The position numbers and the translations under genes were made by a program. From assembly GCA_905250005.1 (NCBI GenBank), contig CAJNOH010000088.1:1-62152 (forward strand): a stretch of 62,152 bases of DNA, given 5' to 3'. This DNA is from Rotaria sordida (lineage: Eukaryota). Below, one piece after another: positions 5,536 to 60,781 of the stretch; the stretch's first letter is position 1, and the number at the start of each line of letters is the position of its first letter. Under the pieces are notes generated by a model that searched no databases, was not told the origin of the DNA, and was given only the letters and a program-made list of their open reading frames with translations.

Positions 5536-6051
5536 TATATATATATGATCCTTGTACTATATAATTTAGTTCATTATTTCTTATATGAGAATTATAATGA
5601 GATGCAATGGTTGTTGGAATAATAAATCGTATAGTATTTACTTTTGAGCTAATCCAAGTTCAAGTATCAAATTAAATTCTATTTGACTTTGACTATTTGG
5701 TTCAAGACTAAATTTTTTTAATGTAAAATTAAAATTGAAATATTGAAAATAAAAACATTTTTCTGACACGCTAAGCTGTATTCTAAGTATATCTCTTATT
5801 TTATCAATTTATTCGAACAAATTAGTTCGATAATCTTGATTTATTGCTTGTTGATATTGTTATCGAATTTAAGGTCTTTTATAACTCAACATCAGTTTCA
5901 TGTTCAATATTAATACGAACAATAAATAAATAGTTGCATTTCATTAAATTAGAAAATCAAATCAAAGAAATAGTTTTGTTTCATGGATATAAAAAAGACA
6001 ATACATACTGAGTAAAGATGTGCGGGATCCAAATTTAAAGGCTTGTTGGGA

Positions 6052-38482: not shown

Positions 38483-41400
38483 TTAAACATGTCGCCATGT
38501 AAGCACTGTAGTATTATCCATATTTGTAATTGCAGTTTTTTTCCCTACATCTCTTCCTTCATTATATATGATAACTCCAAAAATAACAATAAATGTTCCT
38601 GCACCGCTCAAAAATGTCACCGGATTATGAAATATAATAATTGATATCCATATTAACAATGCTCGTTTAATAGTATTTGCAACACTAATTAAAAAAGCAA
38701 ATTAATTATAAGCACAAAAAAAAAAATAAGTAAATTATGTATCTTTTTTTTTCTTACCTATGTGTTATTGGCGATATATAAGCCATAATAGCAAAAGCAG
38801 CTACTGATTGTATATGATAAACAAATCCATTGAAGATATATAAAAAAACTAATGTTTTAGAAGTTAATTTTAATGCTAATGGAATATTAACATAATAAAC
38901 AAGTAAAGGTAATTGAAAAATACATGCTAGAAGACTTGCCCAGAATTGTAATTCAGTAGCTGAATAACGATAATGTTCACCACTAATTAATATTTTTGAA
39001 TAAACGTTTTGTAAACTAAAATAAAAACATTCTATTAACACAATGATTGTGAAATAAAAAATATGAAACATAAATGAATTTCTATCATTAATAAAACGAA
39101 ATATTTAACAAATCGATTAAAGCCAATACTGTATATAGATCAATCGCTTTTAAATTCAGACTCTATGGATAATCTCAGGTCGAAATACTGTCATTCGATT
39201 TATTGGTATATACCATACAAGAGGCTAAAATTCTAGTAAAATGCCTATAACTCTGGACAGATGGCTTAATGAGGGACTTTATCCTTTTGAGATTTTTTAT
39301 ATCTTACTGGAATCTATCTTAGACACCGAGTCCAAGTTCTAAAGCGATTAACTAGTTGAAAATGCTCAATCAATATTATTCGAGAGCTTTTCTTAGTTTA
39401 CCTATAAACTTATGGTTTTCTCTTTTCGTAGTTTAGAAAAATAAACAATTAAACTTCATTCTCAAGACATTGTTTGTTACTATTAGAGATGTATGGGATC
39501 ACGGGAAAGGAAATTTTCCAATATTGAGACTTCGAGAAAAAAGTGGTCTCAATCAGAATTGAAGATTATAGTTAAATATTCTACGATTTTAGAGTATCCG
39601 CTCTTCCTTTTGTGACCCAATATTGTTTTATTGTTTGTTTGTGACCATTGCACTATCTATTGAGTACAGTTTAATATCCAAAAATTATCTCTAAGCGTTA
39701 AAAAAATTCGAGAAATTAGCGAAAATTAAACATTATTACGCATTGTTCTCAAATTGACTTTTTCTTGAAAAGAAAAGTGTATAAACATCTCCATTTCTCC
39801 AGTCTAGTACATCTGATCAAGCTGAAACTTTTGTCATATATACTAGACACTGTTTGGGATGGGTATCTTTTTTTCGTTTAAAAAAAATATTGTTCTGGTG
39901 ATTTTTAATAGTTCTTACAAAAATAAGCTCTATGTAAAGAAACATGCGTTTTTTAGGGTTGGGATTTTTTTATTTGAAAAACAAAAAGGATACATACTCC
40001 AAAGAATGTGTAGTGTCTGGAAAAATATTTTCAGCTTGATCGAACATAGTATATCGGAGAAACGGAAGCGAAAAGTGGAACCATTGCAATTTTAGTATCT
40101 CATAGAAGACAACATCTGGGAATTGTGAGTTTAAGACAACTTTTGCTCTACTCGTCAAGATCTATCTGCTCGAAGAGTTTCAAATTTTTCTGAATATGAT
40201 TGAAGCGAAATGAGCCGAAACAGTACTAGTTATCTACTAACGATTGAATCCGTCTGTCCTATAACCTTCGTTTTGAGCTCATATTTTGCTCAAAGATAGA
40301 ACTCATAGTATAGATAAAAATCTTGAAAGAATTCGTGTCATTAGGCTTTTTTCTCGAATTATGGCCGTTTTACTGAACTTTCAGCCTATTACAAGATATC
40401 ACGAGAAAAATCGTAACAAGGAGTTTCGATCTAAAATTCTCCCCAACAATAGCTCTTATGGTATCCTGAAAGTTTCAGCTCAAAGGAATGATTTTTTCTT
40501 AAGATATCGTATACCTAAAAACTGGACTATTTTTGAAGCTATTTTGTGCAAGTAACGTTTTTTTTTTTTATAAATGTGTTATCTCAGAAGGAAAACATCC
40601 GCTTGAGCTGATACTTTCAGAATATCATAAGAATCATAAGAGCTTTTGCTAAGAAGAATATCCAGTAGAAACTTCTTGTTGTGATTTTTCTCTTGATATC
40701 CTACAATAGACTGAAAGTTCCGTAAAATAGCCATAACTCGAAAAAAAGGGCCTAATAGCACGAATTCTTTAAGAATTTTTATCTGCATTATGAATCCTAC
40801 CTATGGACTCAAGCGGAGATTATCAGTCGGACGGGTTCCCTTATAAATAGAAAAAAAAACGAGTATGGAAAAGTTTTTTCTAGAGCGGGATCCGATTGGA
40901 TTTGCCGAGAACATAACTAGGACCAATAACACTTGATTCCATATATCTCTAGTCTAGACATCGGCGTGACCAATATTTTTTGGTCAAGGTTACGGTCACG
41001 GTAGTCACACCAGTCTCTATCGGAACGGCTATTTTCTATTTCTCAAAATAGCATATCCTTCTGCGCCAATAGAAGATCCCCACTGGAGAAAATATGTGCG
41101 AGATCTAAGGGAACCCCCTCAGAAAATCCAAGTTTTCGCAGACAAATCGAAGTCGAGATCTTATCATAGAAAGATGTACCGAAGTCTCCTCTTTCAGAAT
41201 ATCTATGACTTATCGCAAAATGAATTGATTTAACAGACTTATCGTCTAAAACTTGGCTTCTACTATCATATTTTTCGAGAAATTTTTACGGTTTTTTTAG
41301 ACTGCTTTCTCTTTGAATCAGCATTTCGCAAAGTTCTTTTTTTTATATTAATCACTATGAAACTCTTAACACTTAAGATTAAGATTACATATTTATAGCC

Positions 41401-43745
41401 TGTCCTGAATACTGATATATAATTCATGTGTGTTTCGCAAAAATCGATTTCTAAAACTTATTTAGTCTTTTTCTCAAAATCAGTTTTTTGTCGAGCATAC
41501 CGTTTACGCGGGCATGGGTTTTTTTCATAATGACTCAATAGGGAAGTGATCATTTTTTTATTGCATAGAAGACAGTTAGGGCTAGATCCTCACAGAGCCC
41601 GATTTTTGAATTTCTCTATTGGTAAAATAAAAAACCTACGTATTTCATTTTTATCAGCGAGTTTTTTGACCATGAATTCGAGAATTTTTCAGAAAAGATT
41701 TTTTAAAGAACAAACAAAGGAAATTTCAAAAATTGGGCTCTGTGAGAATCTAACTCCAAGGGTATTCTGCAACTTAAAAGCCGCGCCGACATGTTAACTC
41801 GTATCCTGACTGCGAAAATCTTGCCTGTGTACAGGATATTTTTGTCTAATAAATTGACTATAACTCGTTAGTCTATTGAAGATTTGAGGGGAATATTTCA
41901 TCCATAATCTATCCTAGTCTAGACTAATATGCTTCGAAAATTTGATTGAAATCGGACGAAAAATAACAAAGTTGGTTTCTGAGGGGGCTCCTTAATATAA
42001 GACCTCATTCAATTGATTAATTTTTCGAAAAATGACAACTTCATTTACTGAGTTTACACCGTAATATGCTTAGTTTTCAGAATTTTGAGCTAAAAACCTT
42101 AACTGAGTGTTTTCAACATTTTATTTGGACTTTCAAAATCCTAGAAATTCCTTCTCAAAGCCTCAAAATCGCTTTGCCTTTCTGAAGAACCTTTTTAGTT
42201 AAAAACTGTAAAAACAAAAGAGACACAATAGAAGATCCTCTAAAAAACTTTTGCGGTTGGACACAATAGAAAACATTGGGTCTTCTCGTGTAGAAGAGCG
42301 AGAGGTAATATAACAGATAAACGAGCAAGATTAGGTATGAAAAAAATTGATCGATTTATATTTTTGAGAAAAAGTCTTAAAGTTCTTGAAATTTTATTTG
42401 ACCAAAGTCTGCATAGAAATGAGCGAAATCAGAACAAATAGAAAAATGATCAATCATCAAGTAGGTCATCTGATACAAGTTAAAAGAGTCAACAATATAT
42501 GAAAATGACATTATTTTTGTTCAAGAAGACGATAATATTTTTTAATGGTACATTTTTTTCTAAAGTATTTCTATGCAAATTGTTTAAAGTATATTAATAT
42601 TGGGTATATTTTTTCTGGTATTGTGATTGCATTGATTCTATTTCTTCGTTTTGAGTTATCTCAATTAGAAAAGGATATTGATACATATTAAAAGAATACT
42701 AAATATAATATTTAATTCTCTGACGAAGTTTGAAAATAGTTGTCATAGAGCTATACTGAAAATATATGGTGACTGGCCGTGACCAGGTTTTGATCACGGT
42801 CACGACCTTTTTTCAAAAAAAGGTCACGATCGTGATTCACGGCGATCACGTCGATGTCTACTCCAGTCACAATCTATAATAAATTACGTCTGCAGTGTCT
42901 ATTACAATTTATGAGAGAAAGATCTCATAATCTGGCCTTATATTTCAACATTTCTTGTTTTTAATTTATATTTCATAAAATTCAAAAATAAAATCTTACC
43001 AATCAAATATATTTGTGCCTAATGCACATAAAAATCCAAATAAATTAAAACTTAATTCAAATGAACTACATAAACAAAGACCAAGTGTTATTGGTACCAT
43101 TGAAAATTTTGTCCAATTACCTAAAATAAAAAATATTTTACATTTTATATTTAATAAATATTGAAACAAAAAAAGTATTCTTTACTTGTTTTTTCTCCAA
43201 GTATAATTCGACTTATAATAACAGTAAATAATGGTGAAGATGATTTGATTGTTGCTACAAATGATACAGCTATATATTTCAATGCAACTAAACCTAACAT
43301 AACAGTCACAGAACGAAATGCACCAATAAACATCATATCACGAAATATATTTTTCATAATAATTGGATTTTTATCTAATTGATTATGAAATTTATTTATA
43401 AATTGTATTTGAATATAACCACTTATTACAGATATAACAAGTTGATTTGCACCTTTATTCAAAAATAAACAAATAAACAAATAAAAGAAATTTTAATTAA
43501 AAGAAAAAAAAATAATATTTTTATTTTTCTATTTCAATACCTAATGAAAAAGCATCACCATCTAAATGACTTAATATATATTTATTTGAAAATATTGTTG
43601 CAGCTGATGAAATATACCAAACAATAAGTAATATTATTGCCATTGAATGATATAAACCACGTGGAACTTCAAGTACAAATCGTTCTGGTGAAAGTAAAAC
43701 ATTTGCTCGATTTGGGACAACTTCAGATAAACTTGTTAATGACAT
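38483..43745 (-). CDS. SLC35E-like nucleotide-sugar/triose-phosphate-translocator-family transporter (5 exons). It includes one anomalous 3984-bp intron.
   Basis: Minus-strand exons are 43745..43541, 43452..43186, 43120..43000, 39015..38758 and 38684..38483, and the phases close. The translation is MSL..MAIILLIVWYISSAATIFSNKYILSHLDGDAFSL|GANQLVISVISGYIQ...FRSVTVMLGLVALKYIAVSFVATIKSSSPLFTVIISRIILGEKT|SNWTKFSMVPITLGLCLCSSFELSFNLFGFLCALGTNIFD|CLQNVYSKILISGEHYRYSATELQFW...|SVANTIKRALLIWISIIIFHNPVTFLSGAGTFIVIFGVIIYNE. It aligns with vertebrate SLC35E1 across the whole length (KATMPIWVVLLSRIIMKEKQ, SLQNIFSKKVL and ANATKRIMVI equivalents are present). Introns 1, 2 and 4 are 60-90 bp. Intron 3 (42999..39016) is about 4 kb. 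Confidence 0.8.
40325..40790. mobile_element. foldback element (arms of about 190-210 bp) lying inside the large SLC35E intron
   Basis: The reverse complement of 40578..40790 aligns at about 85% to 40325..40510 (gaattcgtgtcattaggcttttttctcgaattatggccgttttactgaactttcagcctattacaagatatcacgagaaaaatcgtaacaaggagtttcg...). Track ORFs 40286..40555 on the plus strand and 40579..40788 on the minus strand encode near-mirror peptides. That is an artefact of the two arms. Confidence 0.75.
40937..42872. mobile_element. about 1.9-kb candidate non-autonomous DNA transposon with imperfect terminal inverted repeats, inside the SLC35E intron
   Basis: The left end reads ctagtctagacatcggcgtgaccaatattttttggtcaaggttacggtcacgg. 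The right end, 42781..42872, reads gaccaggttttgatcacggtcacgaccttttttcaaaaaaaggtcacgatcgtgattcacggcgatcacgtcgatgtctactccagtcac. Its reverse complement begins gtgactggagtagacatcgacgtgatcgcc.. and so mirrors tagacatcggcgtgacc. Each end also carries small GTGACC...GGTCAC sub-palindromes. There is no internal ORF. Confidence 0.45.
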
Positions 43746-45699
43746 TTCTTAGATTAATTTAATAGGAAAAACTATATTCATATTTCATTAAGTGTTTACA
43801 GGAAAAATTAAAGAATTTTTATCAAAAATTGATACAAAACCGAAGATTATGAATACAAACAGTGTTTATTTAATATTGATTTGTAGTCTATACCAAATGT
43901 AATATGAATATATTGTTTCGCATTCTAAAGACCACCTTTGGTTTGTTGTTTTTTCTATGCTATTACCACGATTATTTATTTGTTAGATAATCACCAATCA
44001 TATTCGTGCCGCTCTTTTCTATGTAGATAGCTATTTTAAATATAATTCATATGAATTTTTCGTGAGTATTGTTAGATTTTATTCAATGACAGTCTTGTAC
44101 AAAAATTACTCATTGCTAACAAAAAAAAACAAGTACATGATTATAGCTTTCAGAATTATCTTATTTTAATGCAGATGTTCACTGTTCTTCTTTGTGAAAT
44201 TCACCTATATTTTCGAATATAAGTTTAAATCGAGCTTTGTAAGACTCTTTCCTTAGGCCTTAGTAGCGCTGAAGGCGAGAGGAGAAAAGTCAGAGATCAT
44301 TGGATATGTTTTCCTAGCAATGAGAAAAGGCGCATGAGTCATAGCAGTGTTAAAGACCATTCTGAAACTTTTTAGAATCCTCTACAGCACTCTGTAAACC
44401 TAAGATTCCTACCATAGATTCTAACTAGTCTAACTATTGTGGATTTTGATATTTAATGCAGCAAAACGATCTTATCGTAGGTATAAATCAATAGGACGGT
44501 GATTTTTATTAGTCTAGCAGAATCAGAATAGAACGGACATAGAAAAGTATGAACTTTGGCGGTTGAACCGACAAAACGAAAAATAAAAATATATTTGCCA
44601 TGTCCTAAGATATTTATCATGTATATTACCATTAGCAGAAAAAAAGTTATGTATTAGAGATGTATCTGGTAATACATATAAGATGTTTTTAACATAACGA
44701 TATTAAATGAATCAAGTAAATTAGAAGAATAGTAATTCTAAATGCAAACATTTTCGAAATGATAAAATTTGAGAGCGCACATATTAAATATAAAAATTCT
44801 TATAATTTTGATTTATTCATTGAATTGAATTTTTTTTTTTAAATTAATTATTTTAACTCATCTGACAATATACCATATATTTATAACAATCAGAGTCACC
44901 TCAGCAAGTTTCGCTTTTAATTTGAATTTATGTAGTTAATCATTTATTAAATGATGAGTTCCTAAAAGATTGACATGGATAGTTTTAGATAGCGTTACCA
45001 AACCATTTAATTTATCCAGAAGAATCCTAATTCTTGATTCTTTTTCCTGATGAAAAAATCTCCTGGTGTCAGGAGTTGTTTCCAAAGATTTTCTCCTTGT
45101 TTCTTCTGTTTTGTTTTCATCTCGACTTTTAGCACTTATCTTCTTAACCGTGAGAGTGTGTCTCATTTACAAAAATTTGTTTAATTTGCTTTTTCTATAC
45201 CTATCTCAAATGCCTTTTGTGAATCTATTTTTAGTCACATAAAATTTTTGTGCTATAATAGTTAAAACAAAATAAAATATGATCTTGTTGACGCTAAATT
45301 TAAAAAAAATAATAAGTACTTACAGAATCATTATTGGATCTATCAAGAATCTAATGTAGAAACATTAAAGATTTTAGCTAGAGTTACAGCAACGTAACGA
45401 GAATGTGAGAGAAAACGTGCAAACATCATAGAAGTGAAGTGAAATGTGACACAGTATATCAAACCATGCTGTAAATAATTAATTTTTTCATTCGTTCGTT
45501 GCCTTGTAAAACTAAAAAAAATCACAAACAGAAGATAGGTATAAAACACTCAAGTGAAACGAAAAGGAAAAAACCAACTTCGATGACAACAACCATCGAA
45601 AACAAATAGAAACATCTAGAAAGAAAAACACGCGACATACTATGTAAATTCAAGTCATTTTATTTTATTTTCTCTCATTGATAAAACAACACGCACACC

Positions 45700-47450
45700 A
45701 TGGATACAAAAAAATATCGACAGCAACAACAGATGCTTCCACTGCTGGCACGAAAACTGAATATACGAGTCTAAAGCCATGATGGCCTCATTGTGCTCGT
45801 ATGTTTCAGAATTTCATACTGATGTAGCTTAATGCCAATATCGATGATATAAACAACGACAATTACATCGATGCCATCAACGTGTTAAAAGAAGTGATGA
45901 ACAGAATATATCTATTCACTAATGTGTACGAATGCATCGATTTGATAACCGATATTCAAGAAAAAAAATAATTTCTAATCGTTTCTGGTGCATTGAAGCA
46001 AACAACTGTTCATATCTCCCATGACATTCCACAAATCAGTACAATTTATATTTGGAGTGAGAACTATGCTCAGCATGACGGTTGGACCAAACAATGGCCA
46101 CAAACAAACGGCATAGTTACAGATATTGCCTCAATCTGTAAAAAAGTTTAATAAGCCGCATATAGATATGATCAAAATTTGGTCGTCATTAGTTTTGTTG
46201 CCACTAATAGTGAAAGTCACAGACAAAATCTACATGAATTAGATCAACAGTTTATGTACACACAAATATTAAAAGAAATTTTTTTAATCATTGAGTTCCA
46301 AAAAAAAAAACGTTTCGATGAATTTATTTCGTATTGTCGTCAACTTTTTGAGGATGGTGCTAACGAACTGAAAACTGTCGACAAGCTCGAACAAGAATAC
46401 CATATGCATCTCCCAATTTGGTGATATATCAATCAATGTTTTTCGTTTTCGATGCTCGATCGATCATTACGAATGATGGAGGTTAATCTCATAATTAGCA
46501 TGAGATTTTTTTGTTCAAGATCTTCACAGCAATATCGCTGAGCTTCATGCTCAATAGTTCTTTGGATGTTCGTCTTGAAACTCACTTACTGTTTATCGCA
46601 GTCAAAGATTATCACAAACGAATTTTGATAAATTAGTCAAGACACCAGCTATCATTTAACAATTCTTTTTGTCGAGAAGTATCTCTTGCTTTTGCTCACG
46701 GTATGATCACAATCTGATAGGTGTTCTCTTTGAAAAACCTACCAATCCATCAATATCGACTACTGCTTTCGTAAACATCGATGACGTCAGTTATTTCAAA
46801 GGAGAAGAGGAAATTCTTTTCTCTATGGATTCTATCGTTTGCATTAGACTAACGAAACCAATCGATGAAGATAATCATCTTTGCCAAGTCGATTTAACGT
46901 TGACCAGTGACAACGATGGAAAACTCTATGCATCTACTGAACAGATGCGCTCGCTAATTAAACTTGCGCAGTTCAACAAACCCAAAGACGTGCATGAAAT
47001 CTTGCTTAATCAAACAATGACTGATCAGGAAAAAGCATCAATCTACCTTTTGCTCGGTGTCGTCAAAGAGAACCAAAGTGACTACTCAAATGCCATTGCC
47101 TGTTATAAACAATCGATTGAAATCAAACAGAAAATTCGCTCACCAGTGAATTCCACTTTGGCTGCTTCTTACAGTGATATTTGTTCTGCCCATGACGAGA
47201 TGGGTCACTATTCGAATGTACAATTCATCACATCAAAAAGCACTGGAAATTCACCAAAAAACTCTTCCTCTAAATCATCCTGATTTGACTACTTGTTACG
47301 GCAACATTGATTCGTTGTATAGCAACATGCGTGACTATTCGAATGCACTTTAACTCTTTGAAGATGCATTGAGTATTTTGCATCGTTCAGTTCCTGAAAA
47401 TCTTCCTCATCTTGTATTACTATGCTTCAAAATCTCGAATATGTGAAAAA
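45700..47450 (+). pseudogene. decayed member of the R-S-E ADP-ribosyltransferase (cholera-toxin-like ART) + TPR-repeat fusion family
   Basis: Reading across the frames in order gives ...HDIPQISTIYIWSENYAQHDGWTKQWPQTNGIVTDIASIC...FMYTQILKEIF...YCRQLFEDGANELKTVDKLEQEYHMHLPIW W*YINQCFSFSMLDRSLRMMEVNLII...LSFNNSFCREVSLAFA...FVNIDDVSYFKGEEEILFSMDSIVCIRL...VDLTLTSDNDGKL. These are the family hallmarks: PIWWYT, the FNN(FLSTS)-type segment, and the catalytic E-x-E in EEEILF. After that come kinesin-light-chain-type TPRs (ASIYLLLGVVKENQSDYSNAIACYKQSIEIKQKI...MGHYSN, then ALEIHQKTLPLNHPDLTTCYGNIDSLYSNMRDYSNAL). The copy is disabled by several in-frame stops and frameshifts. The STS motif is replaced (NNSFCRE). 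A TAA follows ...DYSNAL. At least two frameshifts separate the blocks. Confidence 0.7.
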
Positions 47451-50400
47451 GAGAATATATTACTTCTTTTTGTTTTATTCGAAGGAATAGATGTAATGAA
47501 GAGAAGAGTATTTTCCTTTTGCTCTTATTTGAAGAGATATGCGCAAGCGCAAACAGAGAAACTCTGTCTTATTGAAAATACAATGGGATGATGCCTACTG
47601 ATAAAGTAACCAATACATGTTTAGATGACGAACACCTATTGTCATAAAAAGAGTTTTACGGTATAGTTTGTGTTTTAATAAGGAGAGTTTCTCTGTATTG
47701 AATTCTAGAGTCATTTGATAGGCTAAAAAGAAGGAGGAAAGAAAATTGTCTGATTCATGCAATACATTATTCTTTCTGTATCAAGACAACAATAATTCAA
47801 TGCATGTAGAAAAGAAAAAATGAAGAGAACATAGATCAATAGAATGATTTATTTTTACCTGTAGTTGAAAAACTGTGACATTTTCAACAGAAAGGGTAAT
47901 TTAACTATACCTAGAAATAATTCATGCAATTGACTATAGAGAACAATCATGGTTGGCTACATAGAAAATGATGACTTTATGTACGATTAGAGATGACATT
48001 TTTTGGAAGAGCAATTCATAGTTGACCGATTTATTTATTCAAATATAGACGAATATGCCTATCAGTTAATTAATGTGAGAGAAAAGAAAAAAAAATAATT
48101 AAAGGGTAAAAAAAGATCAAATCTTAATCCGCTGGTGGTGTTGACATGAAATGAGAAATGAACGGACGAAGCATGTCACTATGGTCTTTCTAAAAGGTTT
48201 CTATTTGATTATTGTGTGTCGTTCGTTTGAATAGCATTTGTTTGAGAAATAAAATAAAATAAATTCGAATTCGAAAGTTGATATATAAATCTATTCAACA
48301 ATGATCATTGTTGAGAAAAAGTGTAAAAGATAACCATATTGATTTGTTTTTGTTTTTCATGATCAAAATCTTAAGAGTTCAAAATTGTCTTTCGATTTCT
48401 TCTTTTGTCTTTGAAATTAGTTTTTTAAACGGTAGTGAAATTTCATAGTTTTTCTCCTTATCTTTGCACTACTTTCAGAAAAGTTTAAAAATGACTTTTT
48501 ATTTTCTATTAGAACTTTGATACTCTTTACAAACAATATTTCCAATAGATTATCATTTTGAATCTTTATTTTCTGATTTATCTTTTTCTCATATCAATTC
48601 ATCATCAGTCTTTGATTTATTCCATAAAATAATTGTCTACAAGAAAAATTAACAAGGAACATTAATACAAAAAAGAAGGCAAAACACACTTTTGTACGAG
48701 TACACAACATTACAAAAAATAATCATTTGCCTATGACCAACAAAAAAGCAAGCGAAAATGATTTGTTAATATAATATGTCGATATGACACAAGTATCTAT
48801 TTTCTTTTTAATAAATATTTTAAACATTAATCTAACCATTCATCATTAAATATTATTAAGTCACTGTTTAATTTTCATTTAATACTCGTATAACAATTTT
48901 TACATGTCATTATTCATATGATTAATATTACCAGTTTTTAATCAATTGTCTTCAACTATCAGTTAATGGTTCATTATCAACTAAATCACAAATATCTAAT
49001 TAAGTAATAAAATTAGGAAAGTCAATTAAGAAGCATTTGATCTCTCTACATTCATGACTCAGAATTGGTTCTTCATTAAATTCATTTATTGTAATGAATA
49101 TTATACAAATTCTAGCATGATATAATCTGAATGATGTTTCATTAAGATTTGCTTTTTTGATCTTGAATAGTTTGCTAAATCATATATAATTCTATTCTTA
49201 ATTTCTTTTCACATCAAATATAGATATTTGAATATAAGATCATAAAAGATTGTTGCGTGATCATTTTGCATACGAAGCAGATTTTTATGAGTTTTCATAT
49301 ATTTTAATTGTACAAATAAATCAAGACTATTTTCATGACAGAATAATATTCATCTAATTAAATAGTAAATAAAGTCTTTTTATAGATTTCATTTTATCAT
49401 CAAGAAATAGATCGTCCAGCTATTTAGTTATTGAATTATATTCAACTAAATGAATTCAATACTAGAAAAATAAAAGAATATTCTATAATTAGCTCAACAA
49501 AGACTATAATCTTGTCATCTTTAAAAATATAATTTCATACAACAATTTTTATATTAAAACCGTATTCAATTCTTAAGATCAATAGATTTTAAAAAAAGTC
49601 TGTTACTAATAATTTGACCAATATTAAGAGATTTGTGACGAATGCATTTGTTTTTCAATTAAACTTGATTCATCAGCAGTATCAAATACTGATACAGTGT
49701 TATTCGTCAAGCTAAGTATACAAAAAAAATTGATTAGAACCAGTACAAATTTTATTTGTTGGTTAATCAACAACATGTTTGAATAATTACATCTTCTTTC
49801 AGTATAACGATGATAAACATTTGAGTGACCTTTTGGAATTAATTGAAACCAACATTTATGAGAAAAATCAAGTTCATTAAGAATATACCGGTAAATTGCG
49901 TGACTAGTTTATGCAGACCTTTGTGAGTTTTTTTTTCCTTCTCTTTTTTCTAGGTATAGGCATTAAAAACTGTCATTTTTTGTTACGATGGTCTCAAGAT
50001 GAAATAGTCAGAAACTACTCATTCAAAAGCGACAATAAAATCTGATGATCGAATCGATAACATTCATTTTCTGATCTTTACTATGACATTCATTATCTTA
50101 CAGAAAGTAACGCAAAAAGGCAAGTTTTTGTGGATTTTGTTTTTTTTTTGCAAGCTTCGAAACTTTTCGCTTATAGCTACGACAGATGTGAATATAGCTG
50201 ATGATCGATAGTGAATCAAAGCGAAAATCAAGCAATTTATTGATAGTATTCATTAAAATTATGTTTATATCTGTTAATAGAGTTGACTTAGTGATGAATT
50301 TCGCAATGGCTACTTCGCAGTTTCTTTCTAACTTTTGATCATCTGATTAGTCGAAATGTAACTCTTCCGATTTGCAACGACAGAAAAAGAAGTCGTAATT

Positions 50401-50654
50401 TCAGTATAGCATGAATATCTTCTGTAGAAAATTGTATCATATTCTCAATCGTCCAAACGATTATTCTTTTTTTTTTTAGAAAATATCGATTTATCCGTCA
50501 ATCAACATTGGAAACCGCGCACTGCATTTTGCAGTCGAATGAAACGCGAATGCCATCTAGTTATTTTTATATTACTATATAAAATATGAACTATCGATTC
50601 AGATCTGAGCAAAATATTCGAAGTACTCGTATTCAAGTAGCAAATACTCTAAAA

Positions 50655-50976
50655 GATGCAGGCGGATAAGATCGTTTGTCTGCTTTCAAAATATTTCAGT
50701 TTTTTCCTTGAAATCAATTCAGTGACGACTCCTAATATCATTGTAATGTTTTATTTCATGATGTCTCTCAATCAAGTTTTCAAATCACACTTGTATTCCT
50801 AGAAAGATAGCTAAGTTTTTGTTAACATCGTAGAGAACTACAAGTATGATTCGAAAAAATTGATCGAGAAGCACTGCGTAATAAATCTTTGCAATGTTAT
50901 CGGATGTCGTCACTGGATTGATTTCAACATATAAAACATGAAAGATTTTGAGAGCAGGCAAACGGCTTTTATCCAC
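50655..50976. mobile_element. small foldback element (arms of about 75 bp, loop of about 170 bp)
   Basis: gatgcaggcggataagatcgtttgtctgctttcaaaatatttcagttttttccttgaaatcaattcagtgacgac at 50655.. is the reverse complement of gtcgtcactggattgatttcaacatataaaacatgaaagattttgagagcaggcaaacggcttttatccac, which ends at about 50976. Confidence 0.7.
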
Positions 50977-53688
50977 TTTTGTCATTTTAGATAAAATGTG
51001 CTGTATTAAAGTGGTACTTATTTCTTTCCTTCGAAGATGAAGTAAATAGCTAATTTTTTTCTATCTTCAATCTTATGTAAAAGTCCATTCATTTATATTC
51101 AACAATCGTACTGTAACAGCGTTATACACATGTTTCAAAGTAATCTTACTCGAAATTCTCATTCTTGAGTGCGAGTTTCACTGCACTTATAGTCGAGAAA
51201 GTTTATACTTGCTCAACTCTATATTGATTACAATAAAATAAGATTCTAAGTATTCTGAAATAAATGTACAAACTATCTTTATTTCTGATTCAATATATAC
51301 ATGAAATCTATTCTGCATGTTTTCACTCATATCTTAGCTTCAATTTTTGTTACATATATAATTTTGTATGTGCGATGTTATCTTTCTGTGTAATAATATG
51401 TAATAAAAAAAGAAACGTCGATATAAAAACATTAAGAAAATTAGATACTATTAGTTTTTGAGTATAATTCACCGTTTTAAATGAGAAAAATGATATTCTA
51501 TATTTTATCTGATTTTATTTTATTTTACGTCAAAAATTAGAGATCTTATTAGGTTGCATGCGTATAATGTCCTTAGAAAAGAGCCAGGCTAGTCGTAAGA
51601 CACTATGTACGTGTTCAAGGAACGCTTACCATTCATCTGAAAACTCAAGATAACAAAACATGAAGAATAACTAGCATTATTAACAGTTCATTAAAGATTT
51701 CTAGGGATTCTAGGAGATAGTGAGTAGAAAAAAAATTTAATTGGAAGTAAATATATGTAGTACTTTTTCTTGAGTATTTCTTTCATATCAACAATAGCTG
51801 ATGGAGATTGATTAGTCTTATTAGTATACTATATTGACGAAAGAACTTTTTTTTTTAACTGATATCTTTGCATTTGATGTCATAGTTTGCTAAGGATTCA
51901 AATCAAACAAAAAAAAAAATTGTTGATAATATACAATTATTTTCATTATATAAAAAAAAAGATTATATCATTCGAGATATTCTATCCTAAATGTCGCTCG
52001 AGAAATTGTAATTTACCAGAAATTATCATAATGTCAACAAAATCAAATTATCAATCTCGAAATATCTATAAAAGATGAATTTGCAAAGAATTTTCTTGTG
52101 TGATTCGAAACATTTCTTATTTAAAATACAGTAAGAATATAGTAAATATCAATAATGAATAATAAATTTGTACATGTCTTTCTGAAATCAAACAACAAAA
52201 GAAATAATTTCCTTGAGAAAAATTTTTTTATGAAGGTAAAACATGATTGTTTTGAGTTTGATTGGGTTGACTTGAGTCTGGATCGAATGGAAAAATATCT
52301 TTTGATTGTTTTGAGCCCGGAGACGGCAATGAGTTCAAATCAATTAAGAAAAAATATATCTTATGCAGACAAGTAAAACTTAATTAAAAAGGTATATGAT
52401 ATTTGTCTCACCTATACATCTCATATTCTATGACAGTGCTCTCATATTTTTGTAGGTGAGGGGCGGATGTCTTCTTTCTAGTGCCATTGACTTTGACATG
52501 CCTATGTTCATCCATTCTCAAGACAAAAAATTACTTGTTCAATTTAATCAAATTTGAAAGCTGTAGTGAGATAGTGTGTCTTAATTGAATTCGACTCATT
52601 TCTGCCTTCGAGCTTAGTAAAAAGGTCCTTGTTCAAATGATTTCATCACTATGAGTTTATTTTTCAGTCATACATGTATCTTTGTTCTATTATTACTACT
52701 AGGTTATTTTTGTATATGAAATGAGCATAACCTTGTTTTCGAGGAGTTTTGATGTATATAGTATAAAATGAATTCATTTGAATATTGTATCCAATGCAAA
52801 ATTTGATCATGAAATTCTTCCACGAATTAATCATATTTAAATAAAATTATAGAAGTTATTGTGATTTATAATTTTTTTTTTTTTGAGATCGCTTTTATAC
52901 ACATTTGAATGATTTCTTTTTCTTTTGTTTACTTTTTTCTTCTTTATTAAAAAAAAGACATTCATTCCTCATTATGAGATCTATTCCTTTTTAGATTTTC
53001 GTATTTATCGCTATTTAGTTTATCATACGGCTTTATTATATGTATTTCTATTTACTTATGTCCGTGCATTGAAAATCGTCAAAGAATATTAAAAATGATG
53101 ATGAAAATTGAAATAAAGTAAGAATAAAGCTAATCTAAAGACTCTTATTTAATGATTCAGAACATTGTTGTCGAAGAAAATTCATCTTTTGACTTCCAAA
53201 ACATAAGAATCTTATTTGTAGATCAGGTTTACTCTTTATCGACAAGTTTATACTATAGGAATAGCTCTTTCGAAAAACAATTAAGGAAAATTTTCCATAT
53301 TTACTCCTGTTTCTTTTCTTCGAATAACCTTATTAATAAAATTCATAGGAATTCAATCATTCTAATTAAATCACGTATCGTAGAGGAAGAGTCATTCAAA
53401 AAAAGATATCTATCACGTAGTTTGTCAAGACGTTGTAATGCATGTTAGATCTCATTAAATATATTTATTATGCTTGAAAAGAAAAAATGAACGTAAAGAA
53501 CCTTTTAGAACATGTTACGTTTTTTTGTATCGATGAAAAATATAACTTTTAAATTTATAATTATATGTCAGAATACATAAAGTAATATTGAAATATGTAA
53601 CTCAATTATTTATTTTATCATTATATTGAAGGAATTAAAGTTAATTGATTATAAGTCACATACTATCTTTTTATAATTAAACTAACTC

Positions 53689-54311
53689 ACAAGGGAACAT
53701 TCCCAGGTGCCCGATCGCTTTTGAGTCGGAACTTTGCGCATCTTGTAGGCCTTGATGAATTATGTCTACCATAGAAAAAGTTCGCGCCCCTAGCTTGTTC
53801 CTAGTGAGATATCGAGGTTTTAATGAATTTTCTCTATAAGACGCCACATTTGCAACAAGGTCATATTTTTGAATTTTGATCTGAAACTTTGTCCACATAA
53901 ACAGCTCAGCTAGACTAGTTTGCATAAAAAATTTCAGAACTTTTGGACAAAGTCTCTCCGAGATATGAAGCTTTCAAAAAATGTATGCTTTATACGCTAT
54001 CTATGGAAAACGACCTATACGTTGAAAGCTTCATATCTCGGAGAGACTTTATCCAAAAGTTCTGAAATTTTTTATGCAAACTAGTCTAACTGAGGTGTTT
54101 ATGTAGACAAAATTTCAGATCAAAATTCAAAAATATGACCTTGCTGCAAACGTGGGATCTTATAGAGAAAATTCATTAAAACCTCGATATCTCACTAGGA
54201 ACAAGCTAGGAGCGCGAACTTTTTTTATGGTAGATATAATTCATCAAGGCCTACAAGATGCGCAAAGTCCCGACTCAAAAGCGATCGGGCACCTGGGAAT
54301 GTTCCCTTGTC
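53689..54311. mobile_element. near-perfect long palindrome or foldback element (arms of about 290 bp, loop of about 40 bp). It belongs to the same family as the elements at 16583 and 26169.
   Basis: The left arm is cacaagggaacattcccaggtgcccgatcgcttttgagtcggaactttgcgcatcttgtaggcc...ctccgagatatgaagctttcaa. The right arm is ttgaaagcttcatatctcggag...ggcctacaagatgcgcaaagtcccgactcaaaagcgatcgggcacctgggaatgttcccttgt. Track ORF 53677..53925 is an arm artefact. Confidence 0.85.
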
Positions 54312-56526
54312 AGTTGATTTAGAGGAAAAAAAAAGAAACTTTGAACATGTTTTATCTTCTCTATCTATAAGTATAGTAATTATAAATATATAGAAAAAAC
54401 TAAAAACATTATTCTATATATTATAGAATGTAAAAAAAACACAAAAACCAAAGATCTATGGAATACTTTTAAAAAGTCTTTTTTGTACGATATAATTTTG
54501 AATCTATTTTTTCTTAGTTTTCTATTTTAATTACAGCTGTGATGTAATCATTATTGTCAATCTTCATAAATAGGTTATCGTGTTTGATTAAAGTGCCGTG
54601 CATGACGATTATTTATTTCAGTAGAACTTTTTGACACTAAAAGTATTTCAAAAGAACTTTTATTTATAGCCTATTATTGCAAAATATAAATAGATAATTG
54701 AGTAGATTTACTTTAAAAATACAGATGATGTCGAACTAAAATTTCATTTAGGGTAATCCGATTAAGTTTTATATTTCATTATGAATATTGATCCTTTGTT
54801 GTTTCTTTTTCTTAGTATTTATAATTGAAAAGAGCTATGCACAGAAATACTGTATTCATAATTATTTATGTCTTAATAACCTTGTGTTTCATTGTATTAG
54901 AATAGAAAACGTCCTTAGTAACCTGTTCGAGGTATTTAATGTAGCAAAAGAAGTTGTTTCTTATTAATTGCTTACATAGAGTAAATTAAAATTAAGTGAT
55001 TGATAAATTTTCCATATGTCTTTTGATTAAATTTATTATATTAAATAATTAACATTTATGTTCGATAGACTCTCATTTATTTATGTTAAATTTAACAGCA
55101 ACTTTAATACTATACATAATTGTCAAATACTTGAATGCAAGACTTAGCAGGTGATTGAATAATAGAACGAGAAAAATAACAAGACATTTCATTTTCTTTA
55201 TTAATTAATAATAACAGTAAAGACAAAAGTTTATACGAGCTGGCGCATCAATAAAAATCCGCCATGTCAATTAATGCTATGAGTGGTAAACACCTTTTTT
55301 TTTTATAGTTAAAAATATCGTTAATGATGTTCTTCTTGTTTTTTTTCATGCGATACAAATTATGGATAATTCATAAATAGACAATGCACTTATTACTATC
55401 CGTTATGTAATGTAAAAAAATTAGTTTTTTGACGTATATATATCGCATCTATAATTCGACAAAAATAAGAAAATTGGTGTATGTAAATTTGATATGTCAA
55501 AATATATCTAATTAAGATATATCTTTTAAAATTATATATTACTTTCTAATTTCTCTTTAAACTAAAATATTCATTTAAATCAACATGAATATATCCACTT
55601 TTATTATTTAGTTTTTGATATGTTATTATCTTGTATTGAGGTGATCTAAAGTTTACTTTCGTTTAATTATGTAGTAGGAAGATACTTATTTCTATAACCT
55701 ACTAATACTAAAGCATGTATACAACAAAATAAAATTGATACTCCTTGATATTCAAAAATCATTAGAGATTTTTTTGAACTAGAATGTCGTCGAGATATGT
55801 TGGCTAGTCAAATGCATAGAAAGATAAAAGCCGATGTTGATTGTCAATAAGAGCCTTGTTTTTCTTTTTATTATAATATCCAGAATATAATTAATTCTTA
55901 TGGGTCTTATATCTGCTTTTTGTTTAGAAATTAAATGAGAACATAATGACAGATTTGTCTTTGAGTTTATGTTTAACATTATAATGATTTATGCCATAAT
56001 TGCCAAATGAATATTTTTGTTTTCATATTTAATGACATCAAATATTACAAAAGAAAGATTCTATTTGCATATATTTTCTTTTCTGAATAATATCTATATT
56101 TGATTGGAAAGCATGATATAACACATTTGTGTACTCGGAACATGAATAGAACATTGTAATGTATCATTTTTCTTTATATTAAAGAAATCTTATTCCTATA
56201 TGTGAAAGTTAACACTGTATTTTTTTTTTGTATCCTTTAAAGATGGTTAATCTCGATGTTCCTATCAATTGACATATGTTACTTAATAATGTATCTAAGC
56301 TTACTTTTGCTTCTTATTATTTTTAAGTTATCAAATTGTACTTGAAGATTTCTTATACTATATAATATTTTTATTATAATGAAGATCAGATGTTTTTCAT
56401 ATGATTTAACAATAATATAATGATACTTGATTATATATTTTATACAAACTCATTTTCTTATATTTACATAAACAGATACGATATATATATATATTAAGAA
56501 TATTTATAAAAACATGCTTTAGATAT

Positions 56527-56741
56527 TACCTTGTCCGGAAAGTCCGTGCAACTCATATACTATAAAACCTTAGGATAACAAGTGCTGCATTTAATCAACG
56601 TAATGACCTTCGCTAATAGCCACACATAGCTCGTTGGCAACGTGGAATCGCTAGTGAAGGTCATTAGATTGAATAAGTCCAGTATCTGTTAATCTAAGAT
56701 TTCATAGTATATCAGTTGCATGAACTTTCCGAACAAGGTAA
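56527..56741. mobile_element. MITE-like palindromic element of about 215 bp
   Basis: ttaccttgtccggaaagtccgtgcaactcatatactat pairs with atagtatatcagttgcatgaactttccgaacaaggtaa. An inner pair is taatgaccttcgctaatagc and gctagtgaaggtcatta. Confidence 0.7.
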
Positions 56742-57146
56742 TATTATATAGAAATAAACTTAAGAAGGGTGAAAAGAATAAACGTATGAAAACGTGACAT
56801 TGATAAAGACTTAGTCACGTAATATTTTTCTGTTTGTTTCTCAAATAGTCAAACGTACTTGTATAAGAATAGTATATAAGCATATGTGTTATTATTTTTC
56901 TTCAATAGCAAAATGTTTAAACATATATAAGTAAAAGAGATATTTTTCTTCTTTTGTCTTGCTCATTCTTCAACGTTTTATCATCCTTTGGAATTTGATT
57001 CCAAATGTAAGTACGAATATATATAGTTTTTTATTTCGATTTAACCACTGTTTGACTGAAACAAAAAAAAGCTGTCAAAAGATCCGGTGATTAAAAATGT
57101 AACATTAACAAATATGAACTTGTTCTTTTAAGAGAAATTGTTGAAT

Positions 57147-58177
57147 TTTAATTATATTATATTCTCGAAATTTATGAAAAGATTTTATTTTGATTGAACA
57201 TCAAAATCGGAGTAGGAAAACGTTATTTGATTAAATTTTGAGTTGATAAGATCAAAAAAACGAATCGTGCTTAAGTATAGATGCTTCCAACATGTCTCAT
57301 AACACGCACTTGTGAATATTCTTGTAAACTTATCTAATGCTTCTGTAATAAGAAGCTAATGATCTACCTCATTAAAACGACTATATCATGAGCTAAAAAA
57401 CATATCCATGCAATTTCTTTTGTAATTTTGTTTTATTGTTGAGAAAATTGAATTTTTCTCTTGTTTCGTGGCAAAATCCGATTAAAGCAAAGTGAAAAAT
57501 GTGTTCATATTTAGCGATTTTTATTACTATAACTCCATTGTAAACTGAAATAGATAGCATATTCAGTATTAGCATAAGAAACTGCACCAAATCACATATG
57601 TTTCCGTAAAAACTGTTTACAATAAAAAAATACACCTGTGATCTATTTTTCTAAAATTTTGCCTTTACCTCGCGACAAGGTCGGTTTTTTGACGAACAAA
57701 AAAGCCCTTAAAACATACATGATTTGAGGTAGTGTTTCAAGCTGATTCCGAATATGCTGTCTATTTTATTTTACAATTGAGCTATAATAATAAAAACCGT
57801 TAAATATGAACACATTGTTCACTTTTTTTTAATATAATTTTGCCACCGAATAAGAAAAAAACTCAATTTCCTCAACAATAAAACAAAATTACAAAAAGAT
57901 TGCATTGGCTCATTTCTAGCTCACAGCCTGGCCGCTTAATGAAGCAAAAGTACTAGTTTTTAGCTTTTATTACAAAAATATTAGATAAGTTTACAAGATT
58001 ATTCACAAGTGCGTGTTATGAGACATGTTAGAAACATCTATATTTGAGCGGGATTTTTTTTTTTGATCTTATCAACTGAAAATCTAATAAAAAATAACGT
58101 TTTTCTACTCAGATTTTGATGCTCAAGCAAAATAAAATCTTTTCATAAACTTCGCAGATATAACATAATTAAAATTT
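57147..58177. repeat. about 1.03-kb palindrome (arms of about 500 bp, spacer of about 40 bp centred near 57665)
   Basis: The outer pair is aattttaattatattatattctcgaaatttatgaaaagattttattttgattgaacatcaaaatcgg at 57147.., matched by cagattttgatgctcaagcaaaataaaatcttttcataaacttcgcagatataacataattaaaatt ending at 58177. Continuous pairing runs through 57240..57380 against 57935..58100, and 57380..57640 against 57690..57935. Track ORF 57393..57635 lies inside one arm. Confidence 0.8.
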
Positions 58178-59611: not shown

Positions 59612-60781
59612 ATGATTCCAATAACAAATTCTTCAATGAATAATTTAACTATTCCATTATCTTATTGTTTTCTTGATCGTTTAAATTTTTTTTTCAATCA
59701 TATTTATTTATTATTACTTACTGTAATTGGTTCAATTGGTAATACATTTGTTATTATTATTTTTTGTCAACGAGCATTTCGTACAAAAATTGGTTCGATT
59801 AATTCAAATATGTCTGTTTATCCATTTTTATTTTATATGGCTATATCAGATACAATGTATTTAATTATATTATTTTGTTTATGGTTATCAAATTATATTA
59901 ATGTTTTACATCGTCCAGTTATTTGTCAACTTACATTATATTTAACATATGTTTGTAATTTTATTAATGCTTATTATACAATAGCATTTACTGCTCAACG
60001 TTTATTTGCAGTTATTAATCCATTTCGTGTATCACATGTTCTTTCATGGTATCGTTCACGATTTTTATCATTATCAATAATAATATTTGCTTGTTTAATA
60101 TATTCATATTTACCATTTTTAATTGGTATTGTTAATGGAAAATGTTTTTCTCGTCCAGAATTTCGTTGGATAAATAAATATATGGATATAATTGATAGTA
60201 TTATTGTTTTTCTTATACCATATATTATTATAATAACAATGAATACAATTATTCTTATATCATTACGTCGTATGAAACATGATCAACATGAATTTCTATT
60301 TCGAACTCATTCACATTTAAATAGACGACGTGAATTAATACGTCGTAATGCATCACGTAAAATAACAAAATTATTATTAACTATTTCAACATCATATTTA
60401 ATTATATGTGCACCATATGCATCTATACATACATGGCGTTTATTAAATAATCGTCAACAAAATAAAAATTCACAATTAATTAAACAATTAGAACATTATG
60501 CACTTTTTATATATCATATATCATTTGCAATGAATTTTTATATTTATATTGTGTTGGATTCAAAATTTCGTCGTGAATTAAAACGTTTTTTTATAAAATC
60601 AAAACAAAATTTTTATCAATGTTCTCGACAAAAGAAATTTGTTGAAAATGACAATCAATTAGAATTAGTAGACAATAATTCTACAACAACAGTTGGATAT
60701 ACATTTCAAGGAAATCTACAAAATGTTAATCATAATCATAATCTTATGAGAAACTCTTGTTGTTGTCATATTCATTTGTAG
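59612..60781 (+). CDS. rhodopsin-like (class A) GPCR, intronless, 389 aa, orphan
   Basis: This is a single ORF with seven hydrophobic segments. TM1 is ..LLLTVIGSIGNTFVIIIF, with the GN motif. TM2 is FLFYMAISDTMYLIILF, with the conserved Asp. The end of TM3 is IAFTAQRLFAVINP, so Q-R-L stands in the D/E-R-Y position. TM7 is FAMNFYIYIVLDSKFRREL, so NFxxY stands where NPxxY is usual, followed by a basic helix-8-like stretch. The third intracellular loop is basic (LRRMKHDQHEF..RRRELIRRNASRKITK). AATAAA is at about 60823. Confidence 0.75.
   Translation: MIPITNSSMNNLTIPLSYCFLDRLNFFFNHIYLLLLTVIGSIGNTFVIIIFCQRAFRTKIGSINSNMSVYPFLFYMAISDTMYLIILFCLWLSNYINVLHRPVICQLTLYLTYVCNFINAYYTIAFTAQRLFAVINPFRVSHVLSWYRSRFLSLSIIIFACLIYSYLPFLIGIVNGKCFSRPEFRWINKYMDIIDSIIVFLIPYIIIITMNTIILISLRRMKHDQHEFLFRTHSHLNRRRELIRRNASRKITKLLLTISTSYLIICAPYASIHTWRLLNNRQQNKNSQLIKQLEHYALFIYHISFAMNFYIYIVLDSKFRRELKRFFIKSKQNFYQCSRQKKFVENDNQLELVDNNSTTTVGYTFQGNLQNVNHNHNLMRNSCCCHIHL

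Follow-up and report, generated by a model that had tools for sequence, protein, structure and literature searches.

Known counterparts of the proteins considered here include the bacterial C2/C3-like R-S-E toxins, among them Vis from Vibrio splendidus (PDB 4XZJ/4XZK), C3bot, Certhrax, SpvB, CDTa and C2-I, whose fold and R, S-T-S and E-x-E motifs are held in common with the ADP-ribosyltransferase (ART) domain of a family of bdelloid rotifer proteins. The E-x-E form of the last motif is linked to arginine specificity. Sequence identity between the rotifer and toxin domains is only ~17–22%, and the rotifer proteins differ from the toxins in being encoded in an animal genome, in their fusion to an alpha/beta domain at the N terminus and an array of tetratricopeptide repeats (TPRs) at the C terminus, and in having no secretion or translocation component. 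A second point of comparison is provided by the vertebrate ecto-ARTs (ARTC, PF01129). Intact rotifer members reach the PF01129 gathering score, but the bacterial exoenzyme model PF03496 fits them just as well, and they lack a signal peptide or GPI-type architecture; no TPR fusion is known in the ARTC family. Closest of all are bdelloid proteins which carry the automatic UniRef and NCBI names 'NAD(P)(+)--arginine ADP-ribosyltransferase', 'kinesin light chain' or TPR protein (for example P0005 from Rotaria sp. Silwood1 and P0068 from A. steineri). These are full-length and collinear with the locus described below, at 45–59% identity. The expansion of TPR families in bdelloids has been noted in general terms (PMC3846280), and in the searchable literature we came across no account devoted to the bdelloid ART-TPR family.

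The locus occupies positions 45700–47446 on the + strand of a 62,152-nucleotide stretch of the Rotaria sordida genome, hereafter the window. We conclude with high confidence that it is a non-functional pseudogene whose ancestor was a single-exon member, of about 580 codons, of this very large family. Unlike the bacterial toxins, this copy cannot be active.

Extent and lesions of the pseudogene

A tblastn comparison of five intact homologues (P0005, P0001, P0014, P0050 and P0002) with the 62 kb window returned a single locus read in three frames (45714–46514, 46507–47220 and 47225–47440) with a joint E value of ~1e-126 to 1e-137. The alignments are collinear across all three frames (45–59% identity) and run from residue ~2–8 of the homologues through to the C-terminal cap. 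The limits of 45700–47450 given in an earlier note on this DNA are accurate, as the ATG lies at 45700–45702 and the final TGA at 47444–47446. The R. sordida annotation has no called gene across this interval. The features of the locus, all on the + strand, are as follows.

45700..47446, +: whole pseudogene, full-length and intronless, ancestor ~582 codons (collinear tblastn; retained ATG to C-terminal cap and TGA)
45700..45715, +: start codon (MDTKK) still present, then frameshift 1 within the A7 run; the ATG is out of frame with the homologous ISTATTDASTAG...
45709..45715, +: frameshift 1, in an A-run (A7), where the homologous frame changes
45780 TGA, 45825 TAG, 45969 TAA, 46149 TAA, 46152 TAA, +: internal stops (translation)
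45813..46169, +: remnant of the N-terminal alpha/beta (flavodoxin/CheY-like) domain, aligning to P0005 residues 36–154; stops 45825, 45969, 46149 and 46152
46400..46920, +: what is left of the R-S-E ART domain (58% identity to the corresponding P0005 segment); stops 46422, 46555, 46576 and 46657; frameshift 2
46422 TGA, 46555 TAG, 46576 TGA, 46657 TAA, 47351 TAA, +: internal stops (translation)
46505..46511, +: frameshift 2, in a T-run (T7), where the homologous frame changes
46597..46599, +: catalytic Arg codon, aligning to family-invariant R72 and to YRG of Vis
46649..46702, +: position of the S-T-S motif, homologous frame LSFNNSFCREVSLAFAHG; family FNNFLSTSxxRxVSLAFA (DNA alignment of the window with the second haplotype, L005, and translations)
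46804..46812, +: retained E-x-E, the EEE of GEEEILFSM, aligning to family E150-x-E152 and to EAEVLF of Vis
47029..47446, +: some three TPR_12 units of KLC type, then the C-terminal cap; frameshift 3 near 47217, stop 47351, terminal TGA 47444 (Pfam TPR_12, PDB and C-terminus comparison)
near 47217, +: frameshift 3, where the homologous frame changes

The 'multiple stops and frameshifts' of the earlier note can thus be counted as ten internal stop codons, with TAA, TAG and TGA all present, and three single-base frameshifts, to which several deletions are added. One of these removes 14 codons relative to the family. Measured against intact bdelloid members, the copy has lost the STS motif and is unannotated, and it retains about three TPR units where most members have 5–9. 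Many of the stops stand in place of conserved residues, including the W of WLD (now TAG), a W of IWWYT (TGA) and the I of FLIVSG (TAA). These lie inside ungapped alignment blocks and therefore cannot be removed by splicing.

The retention of the start codon, the catalytic Arg and the E-x-E, together with the fact that short introns do occur in bdelloid genes (SLC35E2-like and MVP), would favour a functional gene that splices out its stops and frameshifts in such introns or overcomes them by readthrough or programmed frameshifting. Against this, the intact family members are intronless, so that the frames are not joinable by introns, all three stop codons would need to be bypassed, the copy has lost 14 codons as well as the STS motif, and no gene is called at the locus. 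Taken with the haplotype comparison below, these points reduce the probability of a functional gene almost to nothing, leaving the pseudogene as the reading that we adopt.

The three catalytic-domain motifs pointed out in the earlier note were all located: an IWWYT-like PIW*YIN at 46413–46433, LSFNN at 46649–46663 and EEEILFSM at 46804–46827. The catalytic Arg sits in the context VYRSQRL (46591–46611), where the YRGQG of the family has become YRSQR. The STS motif had been described as mutated; it is indeed lost, but the damage was understated, since the motif has either been deleted or come to lie out of frame. Both haplotypes read FNNSFCREV where the family has FNNFLSTSxxRxV, owing to a deficit of ~12 nt common to the two. 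The apparent 'FLSRS' at 46666–46680 is read in a shifted frame, created by deletions of 8 nt and 7 nt (after 46648 and 46703) which are private to the window.

The TPR_12 profile scores 42.8 bits on the pseudogene translation (cut-off 30.1; E = 6e-11), bearing out the TPR assignment made previously, and the PDB matches of these repeats are the kinesin light chains 1 and 2 (KLC1/KLC2; E ~4e-9 to 1e-7). The C-terminal cap, ALSILHRSVPENLPHL..., agrees with family C-termini.

The ART-TPR family

Among database proteins, 710 family members were matched, the best with E = 5e-149 and 47–52% identity over 87–100% of the query, and no intact paralogue or orthologue more than 60% identical to the pseudogene was present among the matches found. 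All named matches are from the bdelloids Rotaria, Adineta and Didymodactylos. At E ≤ 1e-30 the family comprises 1183 clusters at 50% identity. With homology to intact proteins this overwhelming, the earlier core reading of the locus, a decayed R-S-E ART and KLC-type TPR pseudogene of a lineage-expanded family, is upheld. Family members consist of an N-terminal alpha/beta domain, a helical linker, the R-S-E ART domain and KLC-type TPRs. Those inspected for gene structure (P0005, P0014 and P0001) are single-exon, the gene length being 3 × (aa + 1). The pseudogene is collinear with them through the N-terminal alpha/beta, ART and TPR regions and the C-terminal cap.

The stitched translation of the pseudogene gives only TPR matches in Pfam and the PDB, and neither it nor its ART segment matches an ART profile in Pfam at E ≤ 0.01 to 1. 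The ART identity of the pseudogene is therefore transitive, by way of its homologues. In these terms, the profile search proposed earlier for 46450–46950 fails if applied literally to the pseudogene translation and succeeds only through its intact relatives. Both PF01129 (ART) and PF03496 (ADPrib_exo_Tox) match 19/19 intact ART segments (best E = 1e-8), and intact full-length members score 25.7–27 bits on PF01129 against a gathering cut-off of 22.3 while also exceeding the gathering score of PF03496. A family profile matches the Vis toxin with E = 1.2e-9, aligning R, STS and ExE. R72 is invariant across three family alignments, and in one of these E152 is invariant as well and E150 nearly so.

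The fold was examined using an AF2 model of P0005 residues 225–415, which are 58% identical to the pseudogene segment (pLDDT 92.6). Foldseek places Vis first (E = 2.5e-9, TM 0.67), followed by Certhrax, C3bot, Plx2A, SpvB and CDTa, with E values of ~1e-9 to 1e-8 for Vis, C3 and Certhrax. Each of the 50 best structural matches is a bacterial toxin. The N-terminal domain was taken from an AlphaFold model of P0005 residues 1–420 built with 19 close sequences, in which the ART part has a mean pLDDT of 51. Its N-terminal segment is modelled as a beta-alpha-beta sandwich (pLDDT 70–85), for which Foldseek finds weak, generic matches to REC, flavodoxin and NrdI, none at E ≤ 0.001.

On the basis of the fold and the invariant R, S-T-S and E-x-E, we infer that intact members would bind NAD+ and transfer ADP-ribose to a target arginine, with the TPR array acting as a protein-binding or regulatory scaffold. 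They are probably intracellular, to judge from the lack of an obvious signal peptide in their sequences. The pseudogene itself encodes no enzyme, and nothing indicates residual function.

A horizontal origin for the family, which had been raised as a possibility, is unproven, as is the repeated decay of its copies. The ART domain has no tblastn match in plasmids and phages, and when 185,579 prokaryotic genomes were scanned by motif, one match only was obtained, a probable rotifer contaminant. This match is a 1953-bp contig of 35% GC in a 'Chitinophaga' MAG which carries the rotifer-type N-terminal domain, and contamination is the most likely explanation for it.

A second haplotype and the history of the copy

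The same pseudogene is carried by a second R. sordida haplotype or isolate (L005; GCA_905250875.1), 97.6% identical and likewise with no gene called at the locus. The two share five stops (45969, 46149, 46152, 46555 and 47351) and all three frameshifts, including the offset of the start-codon frame produced by frameshift 1. In addition, L005 has three stops and a 1-nt deletion of its own, and the window also has private lesions. Two of the three frameshifts lie in homopolymers, the A7 at 45709–45715 and the T7 at 46505–46511, which are typical sites of error and might suggest an intact gene obscured by sequencing or assembly mistakes. This is scarcely credible given that L005 is an independent assembly with the same three frameshifts and five stops, and that the ten substitution-type stops are not explicable as homopolymer errors.

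The haplotypes differ by 1.89% within the pseudogene, compared with 2.02% and 2.15% in the flanks, and the coding differences between them (32 in total) are 28 nonsynonymous and 4 synonymous. A divergence equal to that of the flanks, with 28/32 differences changing the protein, indicates that decay is neutral and ongoing. These values, and the fact that the stops differ between the haplotypes, also speak against a functional gene. The locus thus combines homology to a coding family with multiple disabling lesions and neutral evolution. It could alternatively be imagined that the decayed sequence has been co-opted for a non-coding role, as an lncRNA or as a source of small RNAs regulating family members. 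Its persistence in two haplotypes is compatible with such a role, although this is not direct support. We consider co-option very improbable, since divergence is indistinguishable from that of the flanking non-coding DNA and ~50% protein identity implies a nucleotide similarity to paralogues too low for RNA-guided targeting.

Nonsense changes account for 7/32 of the inter-haplotype substitutions, where 4–7% would be expected (post hoc P ~0.0002–0.006). An excess of this kind is not predicted by a purely neutral model. A RIP-like CpA>TpA bias was considered as its cause and rejected, as the contexts of the transitions are even (YG 7, YA 5, YT 5 and YC 5).

Inactivation of the copy preceded the split of the two sampled haplotypes. 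The damage they share comprises the homopolymer frameshifts, five nonsense codons, the loss of STS and the 14-codon deletion. Neutral drift followed the split, with each haplotype gaining further private stops and small deletions.

Genomic neighbourhood and the origin of the copy

The genes nearest to the pseudogene are as follows.

38483..43745, -: SLC35E2-like (TPT) transporter gene to the left, with several exons and apparently intact (TPT profile positions 4–291 of 291, E = 1.6e-49, concatenated exons)
59612..60781, +: intact GPCR gene in one exon, the first called gene to the right (protein identical to R. sordida CAF0829244 and to others from four assemblies, which identifies the DNA as R. 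sordida)

The transporter gene, whose relatives are named SLC35E2 by their sources, starts 2 kb from the pseudogene and is transcribed divergently. The earlier placement of the pseudogene 'between intact host genes' holds on this left side. On the right the GPCR is 12 kb away, with its upstream 10 kb free of called genes, and the intervening gene-free DNA varies in structure between assemblies. The neighbouring SLC35E2-like and MVP genes contain short introns. Inverted repeats occur in the DNA near the pseudogene, which is also structurally polymorphic over 4.6 kb.

The copy could have been dead on arrival, a processed pseudogene duplicated by retro-copying or TE transduction that never worked as a gene. 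It is complete from ATG to stop and intronless, the inverted repeats and structural polymorphism lie close by, and copying of host genes by Penelope-like elements has been reported for bdelloids (PMC3846280). However, in a family that lacks introns throughout, their absence is uninformative with regard to retro-copying. No poly(A) tract follows 47446, and the copy is flanked by neither tandem nor terminal repeats. The ~50% divergence from every known member points instead to an old, diverged gene. We therefore regard arrival as a dead duplicate as unlikely, if appreciably less so than the other alternatives discussed above, and favour the decay of a gene that would once have been functional.

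The pseudogene is an ordinary, neutrally decaying one, and only the family is of wider interest. As an unannotated pseudogene the locus has little weight in itself and serves mainly as a neutral marker, but it shows that the ART-TPR family loses as well as gains members. The interest of the family lies in a huge, bdelloid-restricted expansion of single-exon genes in which a bacterial-toxin-like arginine ADP-ribosyltransferase is fused to TPR arrays. More speculatively, and we hold this to be improbable, the pseudogene would have been lost to birth-and-death turnover in a bdelloid-specific, undescribed and very large repertoire of toxin-like ART effectors that act inside the cell and fall into more than 1000 clusters at 50% identity. 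Its members would join ART to TPR arrays serving as 'sensors' and to the uncharacterised alpha/beta domain at the N terminus. Together they would form an innate-immunity or conflict system resembling NLRs but lacking an NTPase, for which a bacterial toxin gene may have been the seed, and the nonsense excess (7/32) would then have a cause beyond drift, for instance the targeted silencing of family members by mutation. If intact members are indeed immune or conflict effectors, loci such as this one would document the rapid turnover of that system.

A disrupted, full-length ART-TPR copy

Three-frame translation of 45600-47700 gave long family-like runs interrupted by stops. Searching with five intact homologues by tblastn, a check proposed in the earlier note, picked out only one locus across the 62 kb window, full length and collinear, with the matches spread over three frames (45714-46514, 46507-47220 and 47225-47440). 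The start codon ATG is kept at 45700, and at the other end the C-terminal cap typical of the family ('...ALSILHRSVPENLPHL...') leads into the TGA at 47444, so that the relic is full length at ~582 codons. It has ~3 TPR units as opposed to five to nine in most relatives. The description of the locus as a decayed gene with several stops and frameshifts was borne out by ten internal stops, three frameshifts and deletions. TAA, TAG and TGA are all used, which excludes an altered genetic code, and residue-level alignment to P0005 (an intact homologue from Rotaria sp. Silwood1) places eight of the stops (45825 to 47351) on conserved positions within ungapped blocks.

Lesions of the pseudogene (window coordinates, + strand). 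Private, window copy only; common, also in L005, the R. sordida locus from assembly GCA_905250875.1.
45709-45715 (A7 run): single-base frameshift; common
45780: stop TGA, CGA>TGA; private
45825: stop TAG, W>TAG in 'WLD' motif, TGG>TAG; private
45969: stop TAA, I>TAA in 'FLIVSG'; common
46149 and 46152: stops TAA TAA, adjacent codons; common
46422: stop TGA, W>TGA in 'IWWYT', TGG>TGA; private
46505-46511 (T7 run): single-base frameshift; common
46555: stop TAG, Q>TAG; common
46576: stop TGA, S>TGA, TCA>TGA; private
after 46648: 8-nt deletion; private
after 46703: 7-nt deletion; private
just after the ART domain: 14-codon deletion, from alignment to P0005; common
near 47217: single-base frameshift; common
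47351: stop TAA, from alignment to P0005; common

Joining of the frames by introns into an intact ORF is ruled out. The gene lengths of P0005 and two further intact homologues, P0014 and P0001, are exactly 3 x (aa+1), making them single-exon (the neighbouring genes have introns), and splicing therefore cannot rescue the pseudogene. For the same reason, absent introns are uninformative on retro-copying; no poly(A) tract, flanking repeats or tandem repeats were seen at the pseudogene.

A second haplotype and neutral decay

L005, fetched around the GPCR gene, matches window 45008-49303 at 97.6% identity and also carries the pseudogene, at its positions 693-2440. The two copies have in common five stop positions, all three frameshifts, the 14-codon deletion and the loss of the STS motif, while the haplotype comparison also revealed L005-private stops at the equivalents of 46248, 46263 and 47418 and an L005-private 1-nt deletion at 46300. 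Substitution divergence in the pseudogene (1.89%) is close to that of the flanks (2.02% and 2.15%), and 28 of the 32 reading-frame substitutions are protein-changing and 4 silent. On this basis, inactivation came before the two haplotypes separated, and the pseudogene has evolved neutrally since. The R. sordida annotation calls no gene here. Of the 32 inter-haplotype substitutions, seven create stops (four in the window, three in L005), compared with 4-7% expected across a range of mutation models (binomial P ~0.0002-0.006, in a post hoc test). No CpA/RIP-like context bias was found, and the nonsense excess may be due to chance.

The earlier note had read the STS motif as mutated. The motif is indeed absent from both haplotypes, but 'FLSRS' (46666-46680) is an out-of-frame reading, because the frame is shifted between the 8-nt and 7-nt deletions. 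The homologous frame there reads LSFNNSFCREVSLAFAHG in the window, and identically in L005, where the family sequence is FNNFLSTSxxRxVSLAFA.

Genomic neighbourhood

The window is AT-rich (GC ~29%) and contains the following features around the pseudogene.

Neighbouring features (window coordinates).
29178-31561 (+) and 34961-35590 (-): major vault protein gene in two copies, each matching Vault_3, Vault_4 and MVP_shoulder
38483-43745 (-): multi-exon SLC35E2-like transporter gene, exons spanning TPT profile 4-291 of 291 (E=1.6e-49)
49304-53900: 4.6 kb segment, shared by the window and L006 (R. sordida locus from GCA_905251635.1), missing from L005
53678-53977 and 54022-54321: 300-nt inverted repeat, 95% complementary, 44-nt spacer
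57019-57603 and 57711-58311: second inverted-repeat pair, ~600 nt each, ~81% identical, upstream of the GPCR
59612-60781: GPCR ORF, 389 aa, identical to R. sordida CAF0829244 and others

The proposed position between intact host genes stands on the left, where the SLC35E2-like gene covers the whole TPT profile and is divergently oriented, with 2 kb between its start codon and the pseudogene ATG. On the right, ~12 kb (47450-59600) holds no called gene and no convincing ORFs before the GPCR. Contigs from four R. sordida assemblies carry this GPCR, and its identity at the protein level places the window in the genome of this bdelloid rotifer. For a compact bdelloid genome, the gene-free stretch is long. 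The 4.6 kb segment within it, also without convincing ORFs, makes the R. sordida assemblies structurally polymorphic here; one of its breakpoints (53900) falls inside the left arm of the 300-nt inverted repeat. The second inverted-repeat pair may represent a foldback or a TE remnant. The SLC35E2-like gene has an apparent intron of ~3.9 kb at 39071-42996 (-), unusually long for a bdelloid, with numerous short ORFs, perhaps debris of repeats. The two vault protein copies, separated by a few kb, face opposite ways.

Identity, expansion and origin of the family

The pseudogene translation matches TPR_12 (E=6e-11) and KLC1/KLC2 structures (~4e-9), in agreement with the kinesin-light-chain-type repeats proposed earlier. 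Profile and structure-sequence searches with this translation returned TPR models only and no ART model, and the ART match anticipated for 46450..46950 was thus not obtained from the copy itself. Its ART identity rests on intact relatives: the region is 47-58% identical to intact ART segments, all 19 of which match both PF01129 and PF03496 (best E ~1e-8), and full-length homologues exceed the gathering scores. A family profile matched the Vibrio toxin Vis at E=7.8e-4, and a more diverse 39-sequence profile did so at E=1.2e-9 with YRG, STS and E-x-E aligned, the weaker matches after Vis all being bacterial ART toxins/effectors (C2-I, XopAI, HopU1, VsdC). An AlphaFold model of the P0005 ART domain, built from a diverse alignment (pLDDT 92.6, pTM 0.86), had Vis as its best Foldseek match (E=2.5e-9, TM 0.67) among 137 at E<=1e-3, which include Certhrax, C3bot, Plx2A, SpvB, VahC, CDTa and C2-I. 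From the intact-member profile matches, the model and the Foldseek matches, we conclude that the family is a C2/C3/Vis-like R-S-E ART. R72 and E152 are invariant and S99, T100 and E150 nearly so; the pseudogene retains the Arg codon (46597-46599) and EEE (46804-46812), and not STS. The family N-terminal domain (P0005 residues 36-154, window 45813-46169) has no Pfam match; its model (pLDDT 70-85) is a flavodoxin/CheY-like alpha/beta sandwich of five strands, with only weak and generic structural neighbours.

Used as query against 5.8 billion proteins, the stitched translation gave 710 relatives (best E=5e-149; 47-52% identity across 87-100% of the query), every named one bdelloid (Rotaria sp. 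Silwood1 and Silwood2, Adineta steineri, Didymodactylos carnosus). Their UniRef names are 'NAD(P)(+)--arginine ADP-ribosyltransferase', 'ADP ribosyltransferase domain-containing protein' and 'kinesin light chain'. Across 1.84 billion cluster representatives the ART-domain profile had 5059 matches at E<=1e-3, 1183 of them at E<=1e-30; ten of the most divergent listed were checked, and all six with named cluster members were bdelloid. With every named relative and all six of these representatives bdelloid, the term 'lineage-expanded family' is correct. Bdelloid lineage-specific multigene expansions include TPR proteins (PMC3846280), and TPR genes have been noted in subtelomeric fosmids (PMC2861651); literature searches found no paper describing the rotifer ART-TPR architecture. 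On a rotifer-like contig of JGI metagenome 3300059835 (L012), a second ART-domain gene (4639-5616, -; 325 aa, PF01129) sits 4.4 kb upstream of intact P0001, a pair suggesting that ART genes may be clustered locally.

The closest structures to the family ART, for which the earlier note raised a possible horizontal origin, are all bacterial toxins. In the search for a bacterial donor, tblastn against plasmids and phages gave no match, and scanning 185,579 prokaryotic genomes by motif picked up just one contig, in a 'Chitinophaga' MAG (L013 1-1953; CAZRKA010000308.1, 'uncultured Chitinophaga sp.', 1953 bp, 35% GC). It encodes a rotifer-type N-terminal domain and an ART domain in one frame and is probably contamination, rotifer DNA misbinned into a bacterial genome.

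The earlier interpretation was essentially right: the locus is an ordinary pseudogene, unannotated and decaying neutrally, from a known family with automatic annotation, and any novelty belongs to the ART-TPR family and not to this locus.
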